Shown here: piece after piece, positions 39,563 to 48,113 of the stretch | Numbering within the stretch: the stretch's first letter is position 1 | Layout of the letters: each line of letters begins with the position of its first letter | DNA from: Candidatus Culexmicrobium cathedralense | GTDB taxonomy: Archaea > Thermoproteota > Methanomethylicia > Culexarchaeales > Culexmicrobiaceae | Reading direction: 5' to 3' | Assembly (NCBI GenBank): GCA_025061115.1 | Contig: JANZKC010000001.1 | Coordinates: forward strand, 384,001-448,000 | Length of the DNA: 64,000 bases | The notes under the pieces: generated by a model | Database searches by the model: none | What the model was told of the DNA's origin: nothing | Seen by the model: only the letters and a program-made list of their open reading frames with translations | Program-made: the position numbers and the translations under genes

Positions 39563-39883
39563 TTACCAAGTTATTAGGTTGTTTTCTGCCAGCGTTGTTA
39601 ATATTGCATAGACAATTGCTTCCATTCGATCTGCAGGTATTTCTGTTTGTTGGCTGAGTTGTACAGCCATTTTCTTTACTGTTGTTTCGCCATTGCACCT
39701 TGACCATATAGCGTATATTGCTGGTGGAAGCTGATATGTAAACTCTGTTCCTGGCACGTGAATGAGCACTCCTTGAGGAGTAACTCCTAATTCTTCACCT
39801 TGCCTTAACGGTGTTTTCTCAAGCTCTTCTGGAGAAGGCTGAGGAAGCTCAGGCATCGATTTTTCAGGTTCACTCATGCACAC
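39563..39883 (-). CDS. PqqD-like (RRE/winged-helix) small protein
   Basis: YQL...YAIWSRCNGETTVKKMA.QL......V..IL..LAENNLI fits the PqqD pattern. Confidence 0.65.
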   Translation of the reverse strand: MCMSEPEKSMPELPQPSPEELEKTPLRQGEELGVTPQGVLIHVPGTEFTYQLPPAIYAIWSRCNGETTVKKMAVQLSQQTEIPADRMEAIVYAILTTLAENNLITW

Positions 39884-39890
39884 AATCCTC

Positions 39891-40241
39891 CTATAAACTA
39901 AATTCTCTACTTTTCTTTCCAGACGTTTTCGTGAACTTGTTTAACTGCTCAATTTTGCCAAATCGCCCGATGCTCAACCTAGGCTCGCCTCTAAATGACG
40001 TAACATAGCCATTTTTTATGCGAATAATATCCCCCTGCTTTACTAGTCCAACATTTTCTTCCCATAAAGTGAGAATTATAGTTCCAGTATCGTCCCCAAC
40101 AGTGAATTCAGCTAATTTTAATCTTCTGCCATCGCTCGTGCGAACCACTCTCGGCTCAAAGGCTTTAAGCACTTTTACTTCAACGTTTACTCGACTCATT
40201 CCAGGCCTCAAATCCTTAACGTTCACCACGGATCTACACAC
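39891..40241 (-). CDS. ssb: Single-stranded DNA-binding protein, single OB fold
   Basis: VKDLRPG..VN..VKV, VGDDTGTIILTLW, IKNGYVTSFRGEPRLSIGRFG. Confidence 0.88.
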   Translation of the reverse strand: MCRSVVNVKDLRPGMSRVNVEVKVLKAFEPRVVRTSDGRRLKLAEFTVGDDTGTIILTLWEENVGLVKQGDIIRIKNGYVTSFRGEPRLSIGRFGKIEQLNKFTKTSGKKSREFSL

Positions 40242-42482: not shown

Positions 42483-42613
42483 TTGAGATCACCGCGCAAT
42501 TCAGTTTCACTTCTAAATATTAATAAGAGTTACTACAAATTAATGAGGAAAGCTAATAAGTCTCTATATGCGAGTTTTATAGTACGTCGAGACATGCTCA
42601 TTGGAGGATTCCA

Positions 42614-44398
42614 ATGCAATTAGATTTCGAAACTAGAGCTGCAAGATACATAATGGAGTGGGGCGAGTGGATAGAGAAGCTCCAGCTTCTAGCATTACTT
42701 GGATTTAAATTTGAAAGAGCAAAAATTTACGTCGAGAAACTAATAAAGCTTCAAAATCAAGACGGAGGATTCCCAAGAAACTGGATTAAAGGCAGGGCAT
42801 CCAGCCTACTTGAAACAGCGACGGCACTCGAACTACTTGCAAAGATGAACTTTAGAGAGGAAGTGCTTGAAAAGGCAGCTAAATACCTAGTTGAAAAACA
42901 ACTTGCAAATGGAAGCTGGAGAGAGGAAAAAGAAGAGTATGGAGAAAGAAGAGCTGAGAAGCACAGAGTCACCCTCGAAACCGCTAGAATTTTAAGGGCA
43001 TTAGCATCCTTTGACGCTAAAAATGCAGGCATTGAGAAAGCAATCGCATACTTGGCATATGCCCAGAGGGAAGATGGATTATGGCTGACTTCACACTTAG
43101 ATGAAAGCGTAGACATGGAAGCTTCAAGCGAAGCTATTTTAGCGCTACTCGAAGTAGGCAGCGAAAAAGCAAAACAACTAGCCAGAATAGGAGTTGAAGC
43201 ACTATGGAGATGGTTCGTTGAAAAAGCCACTGAAGATTGGAGTGAAATGCCAAAAGAAGCACTAAGCATCGCTGAAGCACTTATAGAAGCGGGTCATGGT
43301 GAAGCCGAAGCTGTAAGAAGGATTTTAAAGGCATATGTTAAAGCTGAAAAGTGGCGATTTGGCGATAAAAGAAGCATCAGCACGAGCGAAGCAGTTAAAG
43401 CGCTAAAAGTACTGCTGTTAGCCAAGGCTATAGACGAGGAAAAAGTTAGACGAGAAGTTGAAAGGCTAATTTATGTGAGAGAGGAATTAAAGAGGAAAAT
43501 TGAAGCTAAGGAAGAAGAAACTAGAAACTACTTCCTAATCAGATTTGAGGAAATAGGTATTAGGCCGAGCGATAAACCAAGTAAGATACTTTTAGGAAGC
43601 TACTTATATGCAATGATGGATCAATTCTTCTGGACATCAGAAGCATTCGATCCACAGAAAGAGTATAGAGAAATAGTTGGGCTGATAGGCTCAGTTGACC
43701 AAATAGACAAATACATGGATTTTGAAAACGTGAAAAAAGCATTTTTCAAGAGCAGAGCCTTGAGAGGAATAGCTAGAAGGAGGAAATTGGAAGTAGCTAA
43801 AAGCATAAGCCTCTTCGCTAAGTTCATTAAGGAGTATGGGAATTTCAAGGACTTTAAGGAATTCGCTGAAAAGTTAAGGGCATATACGCTTTTCAAGGTT
43901 GCACCTCAAGTATCAGGATGGAATACAGCTTACAACTTAGGACTTCTCCTACGCTCATTCTCGAAAGCAGAAAACGATTTAGGCAAGCTAATCAAGTCCT
44001 TTGAACTATCATTAAAGTGCTTTCCAGCTGTAGGAGCCAAAATAGCACTACTATTCCCATTCTACGCGCTATGGGTATTCAGACTATGGCCGGAAGCAAG
44101 CACCTACATCAAATGCCCCATTGACTGGAACATCGTAAAGCCATATGGAAACCTGGGGCTAAGCTGCATGACCCTAAAAGAGCTAAGAAAAGACCCTAAA
44201 AGAGCTGCTGAAGCAATTCACAGACTTGCTGAAGAGCTCTTCCCAGAGGATCCTGCAAAAATTGTTTTTCTATGGATTGTTGGTCACGAATGGTGCACAA
44301 AGCCCTACAAGTGCTATGGAATTGCAGGAAGAAAATGCTGGATATTTGACTTATGCGCAAGGGGGCGAACAGGTGAGGGAAAGAAGAATATGGGATAA
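42614..44398 (+). CDS. Prenyltransferase/squalene-cyclase (QW) repeat domain fused to a divergent HhH-GPD/EndoIII-like domain with a 4-Cys cluster motif
   Basis: LIKLQNQDGGF, LVEKQLANGSW, LAYAQREDGLW; C-terminal LKCFPAVGAKIA (HhH), CPID, C-X5-C-X7-C-X5-C. Confidence 0.7.
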   Translation: MQLDFETRAARYIMEWGEWIEKLQLLALLGFKFERAKIYVEKLIKLQNQDGGFPRNWIKGRASSLLETATALELLAKMNFREEVLEKAAKYLVEKQLANGSWREEKEEYGERRAEKHRVTLETARILRALASFDAKNAGIEKAIAYLAYAQREDGLWLTSHLDESVDMEASSEAILALLEVGSEKAKQLARIGVEALWRWFVEKATEDWSEMPKEALSIAEALIEAGHGEAEAVRRILKAYVKAEKWRFGDKRSISTSEAVKALKVLLLAKAIDEEKVRREVERLIYVREELKRKIEAKEEETRNYFLIRFEEIGIRPSDKPSKILLGSYLYAMMDQFFWTSEAFDPQKEYREIVGLIGSVDQIDKYMDFENVKKAFFKSRALRGIARRRKLEVAKSISLFAKFIKEYGNFKDFKEFAEKLRAYTLFKVAPQVSGWNTAYNLGLLLRSFSKAENDLGKLIKSFELSLKCFPAVGAKIALLFPFYALWVFRLWPEASTYIKCPIDWNIVKPYGNLGLSCMTLKELRKDPKRAAEAIHRLAEELFPEDPAKIVFLWIVGHEWCTKPYKCYGIAGRKCWIFDLCARGRTGEGKKNMG

Positions 44399-45317
44399 CT
44401 ACTTAACAAAATTCACTGCAAGACTTGAAGGAGGAAGACTTGAAGAATTAAAGGAAATCATAAAATCTAAAGATAGAATTGTTGCAAAACACTTTTACAG
44501 AAGAATAAGTAAAGCAGGAGTTTCCAAGAGAAATTTCAAAAAAATAATTATGGACATATTCGCTTACAGCATTTTTGACACATATTATTGGAAATTAAGA
44601 TCCAAGGGCACAACCCCAACAATCGAGTTTAGGAGATTTAAGAGAGCAATAAGGAGCTTAAACGACTACTTGGATGAAGATTTAATGTACTACGCGTTAA
44701 TGGATGAGTGCAAAAGCATGAGCAAGCTGAGAAGAGGTGAACTGGAAAAAATAATTGCAACACTAAAGTACGCTGCTCAAGCATTTACAAGAATTCGCAA
44801 GAGAAGCTTAATTGAGGTAGCTGAAAAATTGAGGCTAAACACCATGTTCAACGTCTCCCGCAGCCTACCAGAAGCAATATTTCAGCGTAAAGCAAGGTTC
44901 TTCGGCCTCCTAGTATCAACACCGGTTGAAGATATAGTAACAGCCATTGAAGCTATAAGGCTCTCCTTAGCATGCCTGCCAAGAGGAGGACAGCACGCCG
45001 CCAACCTCTTCCTCTACATCACAAGCAAAGTAGCAAACATTTGGAAGCTTAAGATAAGCAGCCAACTCCACCCACCACTCGACAGCGGAACCTCAGAAGT
45101 CTGCTTAAGCCTAGGTTTAACGGATAAAAAGTTGGAGAACACCGAGTACCTATCACTGCACTACGAAGTTTTCCAAAAAATTGCTGAAACGCTGTTCCCA
45201 GAAGACCCACTAAAAATGATTGTACTTAGAGCTGTAGCTGAGCGCTGGTGCTATGGCAAAGAATGGAAGCTATGCGAGCAATGCTGGTTCAGCAAAGTAT
45301 GCCCTAGGGAATACTGA
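44373..45317 (+). CDS. Divergent HhH-GPD/EndoIII-like Fe-S protein, paralog of the C-terminal half of the upstream gene
   Basis: Probable GTG start at 44373; LACLPRGGQHAA, PPLD, LFPEDP, C-X7-C-X2-C-X5-C. Confidence 0.7.
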   Translation: MRERRIWDNYLTKFTARLEGGRLEELKEIIKSKDRIVAKHFYRRISKAGVSKRNFKKIIMDIFAYSIFDTYYWKLRSKGTTPTIEFRRFKRAIRSLNDYLDEDLMYYALMDECKSMSKLRRGELEKIIATLKYAAQAFTRIRKRSLIEVAEKLRLNTMFNVSRSLPEAIFQRKARFFGLLVSTPVEDIVTAIEAIRLSLACLPRGGQHAANLFLYITSKVANIWKLKISSQLHPPLDSGTSEVCLSLGLTDKKLENTEYLSLHYEVFQKIAETLFPEDPLKMIVLRAVAERWCYGKEWKLCEQCWFSKVCPREY

Positions 45318-46571
45318 TCATTCCCCGAATTTCTTGCCCCTCAAAGAGTAGTTTAGCATTATTGGCATTAAATTAACTCCCCTAATTCTTCCCAACCCAC
45401 CTTTCAATGAAGCTCTCTCACTAAACGATGAAACCTCGTCGGGAACTACCGTTGGAGCTAAAATTGCAACTGGAACGGGATCGCCAACATGATTCCTAAC
45501 GCTTATAGGAGATGCATGATCGGCGGTTATGGCAATGCAAATCGATTCAACATCAACTTCATCAAGAATTAATCCCACCATCTCATCAATTCTCTCGATC
45601 ATCCTAATTTTCTCATCAAGCAATCCATCATGGCTAGCGGCGTCCGTACCCTTAACGCTAATTAAAATAAAGTCATGGTCTTCCAAGGCTTTGATTGCAG
45701 CTCTAGCTTTAGCATGCAAATCGGAATTCAAGCCGCCAGTAGCACCAGGCACATCTATAATTTTAAATCCAAGCGCCTTGCAAACACCTTTTATCAGCGC
45801 AACTCCAGCAATGCATGCAGATTTAATGTTAAACTTCTCTTCGACCGACATGACCTTGGGGAGAGTCCCAGCACCTCTACATAAAACTATGTTTGCTGGT
45901 GGGAGGCCTCTACTCGTTCTGCGCTTGTTCGCAGGATGCCTCATCAATATCTCGTGCGACTTCATGGTGAATTCATTGAGCGCTTTAGCAGTCCTAATCG
46001 CTGAAGGATCATTAGTTAGTGGCTTAGCTTCCAAAACTCTTACTCCAGTTCTGCCGGGATCAGTGCTAGACACCATTCTCGACAGATTCTTGCCTCGAAA
46101 TACTAGAACTGCCCTATGCTCAATCGAATGCCTAAATAGCACTTTAACATCAGGAGTCGACGAAAGCACCAGCCCGCTTATGGCTTTAGCGAGCTCATCG
46201 CCTTCATGGATATATCTGCCGGCTCGCCTATCAATAACTACGAATTCATCATTAACAGTAGCGAAGTTACACCTAAATGCAACGTCATCTGCACTTAAAT
46301 TCAATCCTATTCCAAGAGCCTCAAAAGCACCTCTACCAGTATAATTATTGTAAGGGTCATATCCTAGAATCGCTAGATGAGCCGGAGCACTTCCAGGCGG
46401 CACACCTGGCTCCAATACATCCATTAAGCCAGTAATGCCTCGCCTAGCTATTTCATCCATGTTTGGGGTATTAGCAACTTCAAGTGGAGTTTTGAATGTC
46501 AGCTCCCTAACAGGCCTATCGGCCATGCCATCGCCTATTATTAGTATCATTTTAAGTGGCTCGACGGCCAT
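45318..46571 (-). CDS. apgM: 2,3-bisphosphoglycerate-independent phosphoglycerate mutase (archaeal)
   Basis: IGDGMADRP, PGSAPAHL, GRGAFEA, KGTDAASHDG, TADHASP. Confidence 0.93.
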   Translation of the reverse strand: MAVEPLKMILIIGDGMADRPVRELTFKTPLEVANTPNMDEIARRGITGLMDVLEPGVPPGSAPAHLAILGYDPYNNYTGRGAFEALGIGLNLSADDVAFRCNFATVNDEFVVIDRRAGRYIHEGDELAKAISGLVLSSTPDVKVLFRHSIEHRAVLVFRGKNLSRMVSSTDPGRTGVRVLEAKPLTNDPSAIRTAKALNEFTMKSHEILMRHPANKRRTSRGLPPANIVLCRGAGTLPKVMSVEEKFNIKSACIAGVALIKGVCKALGFKIIDVPGATGGLNSDLHAKARAAIKALEDHDFILISVKGTDAASHDGLLDEKIRMIERIDEMVGLILDEVDVESICIAITADHASPISVRNHVGDPVPVAILAPTVVPDEVSSFSERASLKGGLGRIRGVNLMPIMLNYSLRGKKFGE

Positions 46572-46575
46572 TCAC

Positions 46576-47895
46576 CTACCTCTTAAACCTGCTTAAGAAG
46601 TCCTTCAATATATCCTCAAGCGTAGGCTTGCCCACTTCCTTCAATTCAAACGTTACCTTTGCAACTGGCTTGTCAATCTTGATAAAGCGCCTTAAGTCTG
46701 TTGGGGTAGCCATCACAATACCATCGCAATCAGCTCTAGCAAGCGTTTCTTCAAGCTCTCTCAACTGCTCAGCACCATATCCCAAAGCTGGAACTGCAAG
46801 GCACCCTCTCTCCTCAACAACCTTCCTAATAGAGCCTACAGCACACGTTAATGGTGAAACTATTTCAGCTGCGCCAAACTTCTTCGCTGCAACATAGCCA
46901 GCTCCATAAGTTAAATCGCCATGAAGCAGCGTCGGCCCATCCTCAATGACCAGCACTCTCTTACCTCTAATTACTTCAGGATCATCCACGCTAATGGCGG
47001 ACTCAGCCTTAACTATCAACGCTTTAGGATTAATCTTCTTGATGTTCTCCACAACAGCCTCAACAGCTTCAGGGCTGGCTGAATCCACTTTGTTGATAAT
47101 TATAACATCAGCCATCCTAGCATTAACCTCTCCCGGAAAGTACTTTAACTCGTGGCCCGGCCTCATCGGGTCAGCAACCACTATCAGCAGGTCCGGCTTA
47201 TAAAATGGATAATCATTGTTACCTCCATCCCATAAAATCACATCTGCCTCCTTCTCAGCTTCCCTAAGTATTTTTTCATAATCCACTCCAGCATACACTA
47301 TTAAACCCATGTTTAAATGAGGCTCATACTCCTCCTTTTCCTCAATTGTACACTCATACTTCTCCAAATCTTCAATCTTCTCAAATCTCTGGCAAATCTG
47401 CTTCCTCAAATCTCCATAAGGCATTGGATGCCTAACAACTGCAACTTTATAATTCCAGCTTTTCAGAATCCTAGCTACTTTCCTGCTAACGGTGCTTTTG
47501 CCAGCACCAGTCCTAACCGCGCAAACAGCAATTACCGGCTTAGTTGACTCCAACATTGTATCTTTAGGTCCAAGAAGCTTGAAGCTAGCTCCACTGGCCA
47601 ATGCAATTGAAGCCCTATGCATTACATACTCATGCGAAACATCACTATAGGAGAAAACAACTTCATCAACGTTTAAGTCCCTAATTAGCTCAGGCAGCTT
47701 CTCCTCAGGGTATATTGGGATTCCATCGGGATACCTTGGCCCAGCAAGTTCAGGAGGATAAATCCTCTTTTCAATTCCAGGTATTTGAGCCGCCGTGAAA
47801 GCAACAACCTCATAATCTGGATTTTCTCGGAAGTAGACATTGAAGTTGTGGAAGTCTCTGCCCGCTGCCCCCATAATAATAACTCGACGCACCAT
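46576..47895 (-). CDS. COG2403 P-loop ligase (cDPG synthetase superfamily; arginine synthetase ArcE-like subgroup)
   Basis: GAAGRDFHNFN, AVRTGAGKS, RHPMPYG, WDGGNND, EDGPT; probable ATG at 47895. Confidence 0.8.
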   Translation of the reverse strand: MVRRVIIMGAAGRDFHNFNVYFRENPDYEVVAFTAAQIPGIEKRIYPPELAGPRYPDGIPIYPEEKLPELIRDLNVDEVVFSYSDVSHEYVMHRASIALASGASFKLLGPKDTMLESTKPVIAVCAVRTGAGKSTVSRKVARILKSWNYKVAVVRHPMPYGDLRKQICQRFEKIEDLEKYECTIEEKEEYEPHLNMGLIVYAGVDYEKILREAEKEADVILWDGGNNDYPFYKPDLLIVVADPMRPGHELKYFPGEVNARMADVIIINKVDSASPEAVEAVVENIKKINPKALIVKAESAISVDDPEVIRGKRVLVIEDGPTLLHGDLTYGAGYVAAKKFGAAEIVSPLTCAVGSIRKVVEERGCLAVPALGYGAEQLRELEETLARADCDGIVMATPTDLRRFIKIDKPVAKVTFELKEVGKPTLEDILKDFLSRFKR

Positions 47896-48113
47896 AACAT
47901 CACCGGTAGTCACATATGTGCAAGATAGATAAAAGGTTAGCCATCCAAATTCAAGAAACTCATTAAACGTCAAATAAAAGTAAAAGCTAAAATAAGTGCA
48001 AAACAGATTTCAATAACTTAAAAATTGAACTAACAACCATTCAAGTTGAGTTTTAATTTAGCAACATAACCTTACAAATGCAAATCATCTATAATGCATA
48101 CCAAACTAAGTCC

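Follow-up and report, generated by a model that had tools for sequence, protein, structure and literature searches.

Known HhH-GPD enzymes and the layout of the gene pair

The HhH-GPD enzymes known so far normally act as monomers, as single chains. Endonuclease III (Nth; 1orn, 2abk) is a bifunctional glycosylase/AP lyase with a [4Fe-4S] loop; MutY and MIG (5kn9, 1rrq, 1kea) are monofunctional and have Ser (MutY) or Tyr (MIG) at the position of the catalytic Lys, so that a missing Lys is usual in monofunctional enzymes of this kind that are active. QNG1 (DUF2419; 7u07, 7ugk) is a queuosine-nucleotide hydrolase, the substrate of which is not DNA. Squalene-hopene cyclases consist of two barrels, and class II cyclases use the DxDD motif as their catalytic acid.

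The window analyzed here (the whole stretch of 64,000 nucleotides) carries two genes whose products probably assemble into a heteromeric protein of two subunits, a very divergent representative of the HhH-GPD/iron-sulfur-cluster-loop superfamily. The predicted heterodimer is unusual, because the enzymes of this family are normally single-chain, and no published description of such a pair was found in our literature search. The genes, their domains and the upstream signals are:

42574..42581, + strand: TATA-box-like TTTTATAG, about 33 nt 5ʹ of the gene 1 ATG, read from the sequence
42604..42608, + strand: GGAGG, Shine-Dalgarno-like, 6-10 nt 5ʹ of the gene 1 ATG, from the sequence
42614..44398, + strand: gene 1 (putative long subunit), 594 amino acids, ATG start, from the open reading frame and its translation
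42614..43465, + strand: gene 1 residues 1-284, alpha/alpha-toroid of the squalene-cyclase/prenyltransferase type
43466..44395, + strand: gene 1 residues 285-594, divergent HhH-GPD/iron-sulfur-cluster-loop domain, from BLASTP against gene 2 and hhalign to Nth
44360..44365, + strand: AGGGGG, Shine-Dalgarno-like, within the 3ʹ end of gene 1, 8-13 nt 5ʹ of the gene 2 GTG
44373..45317, + strand: gene 2 (putative short subunit), 314 amino acids, GTG start, from the translation; a stand-alone divergent HhH-GPD/Fe-S-loop protein

The TATA-box-like element may serve the two-gene unit as an archaeal promoter element. The two reading frames overlap by 26 nt (44373-44398), exactly as the original prediction had it. 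The GTG start that it had assigned to gene 2 is supported by the orthologues, which start at the same MRERR..W peptide, and by the AGGGGG upstream; a comparable purine run precedes the ATG in genome G302. Position 43480, from which the pair had been taken to start, is the beginning of the paralogous half, but gene 1 itself begins at 42614. When the start codon at the conserved N-terminus is taken, overlaps of -1 to 32 nt are found in nine of ten genomes, and the two genes are probably transcribed as a single bicistronic unit with coupled translation.

The C-terminal half of gene 1 and gene 2 resemble each other far beyond chance: BLASTP aligned gene 1 residues 290-583 with gene 2 residues 24-312 at 83/305 identities (27%) and 45% positives (E 7e-23). 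The parallel between them had been proposed from short motif pairs, all of which are present in the translations. The tree of 19 long and 22 short rows splits the two forms by one branch (support 97/98), and the subunits would be products of one old duplication. The gene 1 orthologues (582-608 amino acids, 49-71% identity) are named 'terpene cyclase/mutase family protein' in their source records, and the seven gene 2 orthologues (48-89% identity) 'hypothetical protein'.

Purifying selection on gene 2 is strong, with dN/dS of about 0.07 (0.068, 0.076, 0.078 and 0.079 in four pairs with dS below 1). These values are not above those of the gene 1 C-terminal domain (0.045-0.103 in unsaturated pairs), and the relaxed selection on gene 2 that would have spoken against a two-subunit machine is absent. 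Taken with the 27% identity and the recurrent overlaps, this supports the notion of an old, retained duplication with coupled translation. Gene 2 is also basic, as had been noticed (pI 9.65), a property which it shares with the gene 1 C-terminal domain (pI 9.42).

Superfamily placement and active-site residues

The domain shared by the two proteins is a very divergent member of the HhH-GPD/iron-sulfur-loop superfamily of endonuclease III and MutY. A profile of 36 family members found endonuclease III (1orn) at E 3e-5, in an alignment that runs through hairpin, Asp and Cys loop; MutY, MIG and ROS1 came next. When compared by hhalign with a canonical Nth set of eight genes from the host genome and related genomes, the short family matched with a probability of 98.3% (E 1.8e-14) and the long family with 95.1% (E 2.9e-8). 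The AlphaFold2 model of gene 2 alone reached a pLDDT of 94.2 and a pTM of 0.93; the gene 1 C-terminal domain was placed by its homology to gene 2. VIA-align of this model against 48,161 chains gave HhH-GPD-fold proteins throughout the top 21 rows (Z 13.4 to 8.0, model residues ~14-314), with MutY first (Z 13.4, 204 residues, rmsd 3.4), endonuclease III at Z 13.1 (198 of 211 residues, rmsd 3.2), EndoIII-3 at Z 13.0 (226 residues, rmsd 3.9) and MIG at Z 12.3. QNG1 was a nearly equal match (Z 12.2 over 230-232 residues). The HhH-GPD assignment, originally made from motifs alone, is thus upheld by the profile searches, by hhalign and by the gene 2 model.

Foldseek of the same model against the PDB gave nothing at E <= 0.001; its top rows were the same families as those of VIA-align at E >= 0.059, the best being EndoIII-1 (E 0.059). 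PF00730 was not reported for gene 1 or gene 2 at E <= 1, nor was it among the 25 of 35 Pfam families listed for the 36 family members, and the same PF00730 model detected four other, canonical genes in the host genome. NCBIfam gave zero matches for gene 2 and cyclase-type models only, with no Nth model, for gene 1. The placement therefore goes no further than the superfamily, because neither protein is reported by an HhH-GPD or Nth model of Pfam or NCBIfam. DUF2400 (PF09674), an uncharacterized family for which no paper was found in our literature search, was the only one of the listed Pfam families touched by the C-terminal part of several members (7/36, best E 3.9e-4); membership was rejected, as all matches were under the curated cut-off (12.8 bits vs 25 for gene 2). 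DUF2400 also occurs in 33% of the members of a neighbour cluster in the ESM Atlas named 'Iron-sulfur cluster loop'.

The residues that correspond to the active site and the Cys loop of Nth are:

44024..44041, + strand: gene 1 hairpin P471-A-V-G474-A-K476 with a catalytic-type Lys, aligned to LPGVGRKTA of Nth
44123..44125, + strand: gene 1 Asp504, catalytic Asp position, on the column of the invariant Nth Asp
44294..44356, + strand: gene 1 C561-x5-C567-x7-C575-x5-C581, presumed [4Fe-4S] loop of non-canonical spacing
44979..44996, + strand: gene 2 hairpin P203-R-G-G206-Q-H208, degenerate, with His at the Lys position, from hhalign to LPGVGRKTA
45081..45083, + strand: gene 2 Asp237, catalytic Asp position, from hhalign to Nth
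45249..45302, + strand: gene 2 C293-x7-C301-x2-C304-x5-C310, near-canonical endonuclease III spacing

From the hairpin to the Asp, LPRGGQHAAN...PPLD of gene 2 and FPAVGAKIA...PID of gene 1 fall on LPGVGRKTAD...PVD of Nth, with an insertion between the two elements of 11 residues in the short family and 8 in the long family. Gene 2 His208 lies on the column of the invariant catalytic Lys and Asp237 on that of the invariant Asp; the same two columns are occupied by Lys476 and Asp504 of gene 1. Gene 2 had been described as keeping the Asp and four Cys with His in place of Lys, and the alignment together with its C-x7-C-x2-C-x5-C loop agrees with this in full.

Long forms of the near clade, from the host's order, have the Lys in 9/10 cases and the Gln, the hairpin Gly and the Asp in 10/10, and the putative long subunit in this order keeps the full bifunctional-type active-site set (Gln337 column, Gly474, Lys476, Asp504). 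Far-clade long forms have the Lys in 2/5, the Asp in 3/5 and the hairpin Gly in 1/5. The catalytic residues are thus not kept family-wide, and a simple rule of an active long form and a dead short form fails outside the host's order. Among the six short forms of that order, the Lys column holds His, Tyr and Gln twice each and never Lys, and the Asp column holds five Asp and one Glu; the Gln that is invariant in the long form is missing and the hairpin Gly is degenerate in four of the six. The putative short subunit has thus kept the fold, the four Cys and Asp237 and lost the Lys (to His208), the Gln and mostly the hairpin Gly. Because of these losses it may be a monofunctional or a non-catalytic, nucleic-acid-binding partner. 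The suggestion that gene 2 is a pseudo-enzyme fits the missing residues but is not established, as the Asp is retained.

The four Cys are invariant in 20 long and in 23 short forms, and an Fe-S cluster would be bound at these loops in both subunits, judging from the sequences. Relative to the C-x6-C-x2-C-x5-C of Nth, the spacing is exactly x6-x2-x5 in 9/21 short forms, whereas the long form has C-x5-C-x7-C-x5-C, with the second gap widened in 20/20 cases. The pair is otherwise like Nth in fold, in the LP.VG.K hairpin, in the Asp and in the C-terminal four-Cys loop, with the Lys and Asp together in the long subunit and the near-canonical loop in the short one. It differs from Nth in that its HhH-GPD domains are larger by ~100 residues, in that the long form is fused to a toroid, and in having two paralogous subunits with a predicted interface, where Nth is a monomer. 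MutY is the best structural match to the gene 2 model, and the short subunit resembles MutY and MIG in keeping the Asp and four Cys with another residue at the Lys position; the Tyr of MIG is even found there in 2/6 short forms of the host's order. Unlike MutY and MIG, it is also devoid of the conserved Gln and mostly of the hairpin Gly and is predicted to need a partner, and the C-terminal domain of MutY is missing from it.

Co-occurrence and the predicted heterodimer

Both forms are present in 16 of the 18 genomes with a clear family member, and they are adjacent and in the same order in 14. Within the host's order, the long gene is directly followed by the short one on one strand in 11/12 genomes, the twelfth genome being 45% complete, and the same side-by-side arrangement recurs in three distant genomes (G292, G316, G340). 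The genes lie 2 kb apart in G346 and on different contigs in G388. The long form was found without the short form in none of the 18 genomes, and the short form alone in one clade only, where it lacks both the interface Gly described below and the Asp. Independent occurrence of the two genes, which would have argued against a two-subunit machine, is therefore confined to this lone short form.

The old, diverged copies are predicted to pair as a heterodimer. The complex prediction for gene 1 and gene 2 gave a score of 0.85 (0.84, 0.86 and 0.85 in the individual runs), compared to 0.01 for the best of three controls, although such a score does not tell a heterodimer from two homodimers with the same interface. 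Agreement between the runs was at least 100% of contacts, with a partner pLDDT of at least 86. The mark used was met by 116/157 solved complexes and 2/215 mismatched pairs in the calibration of the predictor, counts which apply here only roughly, because custom alignments were used. A missing interface would have spoken against the pairing; what the prediction returned instead is the following pair of helical segments:

43889..43966, + strand: gene 1 residues 426-451, predicted interface helices with A439-x3-G443 at the pseudo-dyad, from the complex prediction
44844..44924, + strand: gene 2 residues 158-184, predicted interface helices with A174-x3-G178, from the complex prediction

The two segments are homologous, the listed contacts are symmetric when one chain is mapped onto the other by homology, and the closest predicted contact is that of gene 1 G443 with gene 2 G178. 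The subunits would thus associate via the same helix pair in each, packed on small-xxx-Gly motifs (A439..G443 with A174..G178), and this packing would give a pseudo-two-fold dimer of the kind expected from a homodimeric ancestor, from which we infer that the pair descends. G443 is invariant in 20 long forms (Gly in 15/15 long-form rows of the column count), and the Gly is found in 17/17 short forms outside the partner-less clade, which together with the long forms makes 32/32 rows. The partner-less clade has the interface Gly in 0/4 rows and the interface helix deleted in 2/4, and Thr replaces the Asp in 4/4 rows (6/6 in a separate count).

These observations bear on two other explanations. 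The proteins could be independent monomeric glycosylases from a tandem duplication, one bifunctional and one monofunctional and each with its own specificity, kept adjacent via co-regulation only. The monomeric state of the known enzymes, the several paralogues that genomes often hold (the host has its four canonical PF00730 genes), the separated genes in G346 and G388 and the existence of a short-only clade would all agree with this. We nevertheless regard it as quite improbable in view of the interface score against its controls, of a Gly that is invariant in both families and gone exactly in the partner-less clade, of a long form that is never alone, and of a stop/start overlap kept in 9/10 genomes despite divergence to 27% identity.

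Alternatively, the interface could be real but homotypic, joining long with long and short with short, so that the score of the mixed pair mirrors the likeness of the two proteins. The helices are indeed homologous and carry the same small-xxx-Gly motif, and by the calibration of the predictor close cousins of a true partner pass too. However, paralogues with 27% identity are not close cousins, a self-pairing short form would give the partner-less clade no cause to drop the motif, and strict co-occurrence with translational coupling would be left unexplained; thus, we consider two homodimers highly improbable.

If the heterodimer holds, it would be a conserved two-gene glycosylase in which an old duplicate turned into a dedicated partner, giving a new architecture to enzymes that textbooks present as single chains. 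It would also offer a natural system for the role of a Lys-less, Asp-bearing HhH-GPD protein, be it monofunctional catalysis, strand discrimination or scaffolding.

Toroid domain, presumed substrate and possible strand recognition

The N-terminal toroid of gene 1 had been missed by the original prediction. Pfam reported SQHop_cyclase_C (32.4 bits, cut-off 26.1) and Prenyltrans (27.9, cut-off 26.5) for this region, with SQHop_cyclase_N also just over its cut-off, and a squalene-hopene cyclase from the PDB matched residues 40-158 at E 4e-6. Three repeats of the type Q..DG(G/S/L)(F/W) were located by motif scan at residues 47, 96 and 151; the same type of scan found DxDD in 0/20 long forms. The toroid thus shares with squalene-hopene cyclases and prenyltransferases the Q..DG.W-type repeats and narrowly passed Pfam scores, but in comparison to the two barrels of squalene-hopene cyclases it is one barrel of ~280 residues, fused to a DNA-repair-type domain. 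Identity as a terpene cyclase/mutase was rejected, the NCBIfam scores being 21.9 vs 431.1 (TIGR01507), 30.9 vs 322.7 (TIGR01787) and 35.4 vs 851 (TIGR03463). The single barrel, the far-sub-cut-off scores, the lack of DxDD and the DNA-repair-type fusion make the database name of the long subunit misleading, and the present analysis corrects it. The only close relatives of the toroid are the long-form orthologues; it is present throughout the long clade, and dN/dS values of 0.07-0.12 in unsaturated pairs show that purifying selection acts on it.

The substrate of the pair is presumably DNA and its chemistry that of a glycosylase/lyase. A heteromer with a role other than DNA base excision, acting instead on a nucleoside, nucleotide or RNA, or serving as an Fe-S protein that binds DNA without catalysis while the toroid provides the main function, is rather unlikely. 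It would accord with the QNG1 match, the alignment of which is as long as that of any DNA glycosylase, with the incomplete conservation of Lys and Asp across the family, with a toroid that is constant in the long clade and under selection, and with the ordinary HhH-GPD genes of the host. Also, no DNA-repair genes were seen among the neighbours of the pair. On the other hand, a four-Cys loop together with such a hairpin is characteristic of the branch of Nth and MutY, which binds DNA, the HhH-GPD domains of both proteins have a basic pI, and the near-clade retention of Gln, hairpin Gly and Asp in 10/10 and of Lys in 9/10 long forms would be hard to explain without Nth-like chemistry. We therefore keep to base excision as the presumed activity of the heterodimer, which would then have an architecture new to base excision repair, with one complete active site, one trimmed active site and a fused toroid.

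The geometry of the predicted interface may bear on how DNA is held. In the 1orn profile alignment, the interface helices fall on the endonuclease III helix that comes after the loop which acts as a wedge in DNA. The predicted contacts are like-with-like, as the residues four positions ahead of the Gly meet, and likewise those three positions past it; this suggests that in the model the helices cross near-parallel along the dyad. In that case the two subunits would turn their DNA-binding faces to one side, like dimeric restriction enzymes. It is tempting, but on balance unlikely, that the two proteins build a heterodimeric base-excision machine of pseudo-two-fold symmetry which grips both strands of one duplex at once. 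Such a machine would place a Lys-bearing lyase subunit opposite a Lys-less one, allowing an asymmetric handling of symmetric or clustered lesions or of modified bases in which one strand is cut and the other merely read or deglycosylated, and the toroid would be a third module for binding a ligand or a protein. It would be the first HhH-GPD enzyme known to require two subunits.

As the host has four canonical PF00730 genes, no repair gap calls for the pair. The source names of the family members are those of thermophilic archaea (Methanomethylicota/Verstraetearchaeota and other Thermoproteota lineages), and because of this distribution the pair could reflect a need of these organisms for repair or DNA modification. 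The family is rare: a search of 1.84 billion cluster representatives gave 29 at E <= 0.001.

Gene pair and its neighbourhood

The two genes under study lie on the plus strand and, by their coordinates, overlap by 26 nt:

42614..44398 (+), gene 1, ATG start, 594 aa, long subunit (N-terminal alpha/alpha toroid and C-terminal divergent HhH-GPD / Fe-S-loop domain)
44373..45317 (+), gene 2, GTG start, 314 aa, short subunit (stand-alone HhH-GPD / Fe-S-loop protein)

Gene 1 is preceded by TTTTATAG and GGAGG, and an AGGGGG run is located 8-13 nt 5' of the gene 2 GTG. A longer gene 2 beginning at TTG 44226 (363 aa) was discarded because the orthologues start at MRERR. A single gene split by a frameshift was also ruled out: orthologues begin with an ATG or GTG of their own at this peptide, and their overlaps range from -1 to 32 nt and fall in differing frames. 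A length-unrestricted HMMER search of cluster representatives did not turn up any protein in which the domain occurs twice. The sources name the long subunit a terpene cyclase and the short one hypothetical, and they assign the close orthologues to Candidatus Methanomethylicota / Verstraetearchaeota archaea. Metagenome runs with near-identical DNA come from hydrothermal vents and sediment; no RNA runs are listed for the locus.

The pair is flanked by minus-strand genes, FrhB-like upstream and phosphoglycerate mutase downstream, and the annotation of the neighbourhood within the window revealed no repair or defence genes near it. We ruled out a defence island or a repair operon, the neighbours being TFB, the FrhB-like protein, phosphoglycerate mutase, an MFS transporter and an ABC ATPase. 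PADLOC gave no match for gene 1, and its sole match for gene 2, DruH, was weak (E 0.014) and taken as chance. Further features of the surroundings were:

39563-40241 (-), adjacent small genes, PqqD-like (106 aa) and Ssb-like OB-fold protein (116 aa)
45318-46571 (-), phosphoglycerate mutase gene, convergent
46576-47973 (-), ORF of 465 aa
48114-48680 (-), ORF of 188 aa
48677-49510 (-), ORF of 277 aa
50457-51380 (+), ORF of 307 aa

The phosphoglycerate mutase gene ends one base past the gene 2 stop, and there is thus zero intergenic space; an ORF with a similar C-terminal peptide was seen at 10/10 loci of the order. The four ORFs have no Pfam family at E <= 1e-5, and the 465-aa one may resemble cyclic 2,3-diphosphoglycerate synthetase.

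Shared domain and toroid

The original prediction, that gene 2 is a paralogue of the C-terminal half of gene 1, was borne out by BLASTP, which aligned gene 1 residues 290-583 with gene 2 residues 24-312 (27% identity, 305 columns, E 7e-23); every motif pair that it had listed was found. These two are the only copies of the domain in the source genome (1.98 Mb, 25 contigs; the window is G000:C1:384001-448000). No curated Pfam or NCBIfam model names the shared domain. Pfam matches of gene 1 are restricted to toroid families, gene 2 reaches 12.8 bits with DUF2400 (cut-off 25) and has no NCBIfam match, and in single-sequence phmmer searches of the PDB gene 1 hit only cyclases while gene 2 had no match. 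In word-indexed searches gene 2 had 7 relatives and the C-terminal half of gene 1 had 15, all named hypothetical or 'terpene cyclase/mutase'. The family is rare: when 1.84 billion cluster representatives were searched in full with HMMER, 29 proteins reached E <= 0.001. From the alignments we excluded P0045 (1868 aa) and P0051 (1036 aa), whose matches were confined to short repeated stretches, and the fragments P0025 and P0026.

A 36-member profile matched endonuclease III (1orn) with E 3e-5 in an alignment spanning LPGVGRKTAN, the catalytic Asp and the four-Cys loop; the next matches were MutY, MIG and ROS1. Against a reference profile of eight canonical Nth genes from the source and related genomes, hhalign gave 98.3% probability (E 1.8e-14) for the short family and 95.1% (E 2.9e-8) for the long one. 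The AlphaFold2 model of gene 2 from a 36-row alignment had pLDDT 94.2 and pTM 0.93; a model from nine rows (pLDDT 46.8) was discarded. Foldseek of the gene 2 model against the PDB gave no match at E <= 0.001, its best-ranked rows being HhH-GPD enzymes, and the fold assignment is therefore based on VIA-align and the profile searches. Among 48,161 chains, VIA-align matched MutY (Z 13.4, 204 residues), endonuclease III (Z 13.1, 198) and EndoIII-3 (Z 13.0, 226), scores to be read with the caveat that Z of about 13 is attainable by chance for helical models. NTHL1, MUTYH, MIG, QNG1/DUF2419 (Z 12.2, 232 residues), AGOG, OGG, Mag1, MagIII and AlkA also matched; the HhH-GPD fold is common to the top 21/21 rows, and the matches form one coherent family that covers nearly the whole chain and is consistent with the sequence profiles.

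Four further HhH-GPD genes of the source genome are canonical PF00730 members (C1:263345-263782, C1:14790-15164, C2:340729-341124 and C1:80022-80435, in frames of 220-322 aa), so the gene pair comes on top of its usual base-excision genes. Two loci matched the family profile weakly and in part, L019 of genome G148 (E 4.4e-6, 274-aa frame) and L020 of G366 (E 1.9e-4, 418-aa frame). The L019 frame keeps the ELFPEDP motif and both frames lack the C-terminal Cys loop; they may be cluster-less distant relatives.

Residues 1-284 of gene 1, overlooked in the original prediction, form an alpha/alpha-toroid domain, with Pfam scores of 32.4 bits for SQHop_cyclase_C (cut-off 26.1), 27.9 for Prenyltrans (26.5) and 27.1 for SQHop_cyclase_N (26.2). 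Residues 40-158 match squalene-hopene cyclases in the PDB (E 4e-6), and three Q..DG.(F/W) repeats are present. However, gene 1 scores far under the cut-offs of the NCBIfam cyclase models, and a motif scan of the toroid found no DxDD. Its close relatives are long-form orthologues only. The toroid is acidic to neutral (pI 6.1), whereas the HhH-GPD domains are basic, with pI 9.4 in gene 1 and 9.65 in gene 2, the latter as had been proposed.

Co-occurrence, age and selection

At E <= 0.001 the family was matched in 19 genomes of a 401-genome phylum sample. Within this sample, each of the 10 genomes from the window's order (the source genome and nine others) has the adjacent pair, long then short on one strand, as does G401, one further genome of the source's taxonomic family. 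The search gave no match in a 45%-complete genome of the order or in one genome from a different family of the class; further families of that class also lacked matches (e.g. f4 0/32, f6 0/10). In three distant genomes (G292, G316 and G340) a long ORF with the Cys loop lies directly upstream of, and overlaps, the short form; in G346 the short form is 2 kb upstream of the long one, in G388 the two are on separate contigs, and G382 and G274 (completeness 96% or more) have the short form only. When a start was placed at the conserved N-terminus, the overlaps were 26, 4, 29, 4, -1, 32, 32, 32 and 32/17 nt in 9/10 genomes; no start codon was found there in G272.

Thus 16 of the 18 clear-member genomes (G148 and G366, weak matches with no Cys loop, were not counted) hold both forms, adjacent in 14, and none holds the long form alone. 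This bears on the alternative that the two products are independent enzymes: the two short-only genomes and the separate contigs of G388 would suit it, but the long form never occurs by itself, and we consider it improbable.

When 41 C-domains, 19 of them long and 22 short, were placed in an unrooted maximum-likelihood tree, one branch with support 97/98 parted long from short forms, which agrees with the old duplication proposed earlier and fits one event predating the divergence of the known members. Cys spacing cleanly tells the same clades apart, being C-x(4-7)-C-x2-C-x5-C in short forms and C-x(4-5)-C-x(6-11)-C-x5-C in 20/20 long forms. Relaxed selection on gene 2, or its decay, was ruled out by dN/dS (Nei-Gojobori) of 0.068, 0.076, 0.078 and 0.079 in four pairs with dS below 1, more distant pairs with saturated dS being left out; the values were 0.045-0.103 for the gene 1 C-domain and 0.069-0.120 for the toroid.

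A RimK-like ATP-grasp gene (Pfam RimK, E 1e-32 to 1e-39) divergently adjoins the long subunit in G346, G388 and G340, cases that are not independent because the lineages may be related:

L036:3023-3967 (-), RimK-like gene
L037:2868-3776 (+), RimK-like gene
L039:2-880 (-), RimK-like gene

In G316 a truncated ORF in the same position has similar sequence and no Pfam hit, and no RimK-like gene stands beside the pair in the window.

Predicted interface and candidate function

The complex of full-length gene 1 (19-20-row alignment) and gene 2 (23-row alignment) was predicted with a score of 0.85 (runs 0.84, 0.86 and 0.85) against 0.01 for the best control, in keeping with the proposed two-subunit machine, although the test does not distinguish a heterodimer from two homodimers. 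Its mark was reached by 116/157 solved complexes and 2/215 mismatched pairs, counts that are only rough here because our own alignments were used. Contact agreement in the runs was at least 100% and partner pLDDT at least 86. No solved HhH-GPD heterodimer is known to us, and it therefore seems unlikely that the predictor passed the pair by reproducing a structure on which it was trained. The confident predicted contacts join gene 1 residues 426-451 to gene 2 residues 158-184 and do not involve the toroid. The two segments are homologous in the BLASTP alignment, and the contact pairs are symmetric under the homology map (e.g. 443-174 with 439-178, and 446-177 with 442-181). There is a small-xxx-Gly motif in each of the two helices (A439..G443 in gene 1, A174..G178 in gene 2), and the tightest predicted contact is that of G443 with G178.

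The interface Gly is conserved in 15/15 long and 17/17 short rows outside one clade of short forms, which includes those of the short-only genomes G382 and G274. In this partner-less clade it is kept in 0/4 rows (helix deleted in two, Asp in one, Lys in one), and Thr occupies the catalytic Asp position in 6/6 sequences. Genomic context covers three of the six; no long form was found within 8 kb of the short gene in two MAGs, one of Thermoprotei and one of Geoarchaeota. The joint loss of partner, interface motif and Asp matches what the heteromer model predicts and counts against short-short dimers. That each protein forms its own homodimer, which the complex score alone would allow, is for this reason very unlikely.

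The catalytic positions were mapped as follows:

gene 1, P471-A-V-G474-A-K476; D504; C561/C567/C575/C581
gene 2, P203-R-G-G206-Q-H208; D237; C293/C301/C304/C310

As had been predicted, gene 2 has His at the Lys position and retains the Asp and four Cys.

Counts of key residues by clade, from the alignment of 36 rows (the Gln column is that of gene 1 Q337)
Near long clade, 10 rows: Gln 10; hairpin Gly 10; Lys 9; Asp 10
Own-order short forms, 6 rows: Gln 0; hairpin Gly 2; Lys 0 (His 2, Tyr 2, Gln 2); Asp 5, Glu 1
Far long clade, 5 rows: Gln 1; hairpin Gly 1; Lys 2; Asp 3
Other short forms, 11 rows: Gln 1; hairpin Gly 1; Lys 2, Arg 5; Asp 10

The pattern is looser in the far clades, and a 'complete'-looking subunit is therefore not fixed family-wide.

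We consider, with moderate confidence, that the gene pair encodes a heteromeric HhH-GPD enzyme. Both cistrons would be co-produced and the products would assemble 1:1 via the pseudo-dyad helices, probably with one [4Fe-4S] cluster per subunit, and the basic HhH-GPD lobes would bind nucleic acid, most likely DNA. In the window's own order, Lys476 and Asp504 would most likely give the long subunit glycosylase/lyase chemistry of the Nth kind. Its short partner would either remove bases without lyase action, as the Lys-less MutY and MIG do, or only bind and position the substrate; the toroid would be a conserved extra module. A heteromer with a non-DNA or non-catalytic role, with which the looser residues of the far clades may be compatible and to which the basic lobes and the Lys-Asp pair of the near long clade are less suited, is unlikely but deserves more weight than the other alternatives. 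The fold and chemistry are of an already known kind; what is new is the arrangement as two subunits, with a fused toroid and a changed Cys loop. In titles and the beginnings of abstracts, we found no heteromeric or toroid-fused HhH-GPD enzyme and no function for DUF2400.

At two loci, in the Thermoprotei and Geoarchaeota MAGs, the partner-less short gene directly adjoins a Vps4/CdvC-type AAA ATPase (MIT, AAA, Vps4_C):

L057:7905-8903 (+), same strand and abutting
L058:7977-8870 (+), convergent

Beyond the ATPase are further ORFs of 209-284 aa, and those of them that were searched gave no Pfam hit. SNF7/ESCRT-III chains also matched family positions 13-132 weakly (E about 0.01); these hits were treated as helical-hairpin noise. 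A link to the cell-division cluster would be a possibility.
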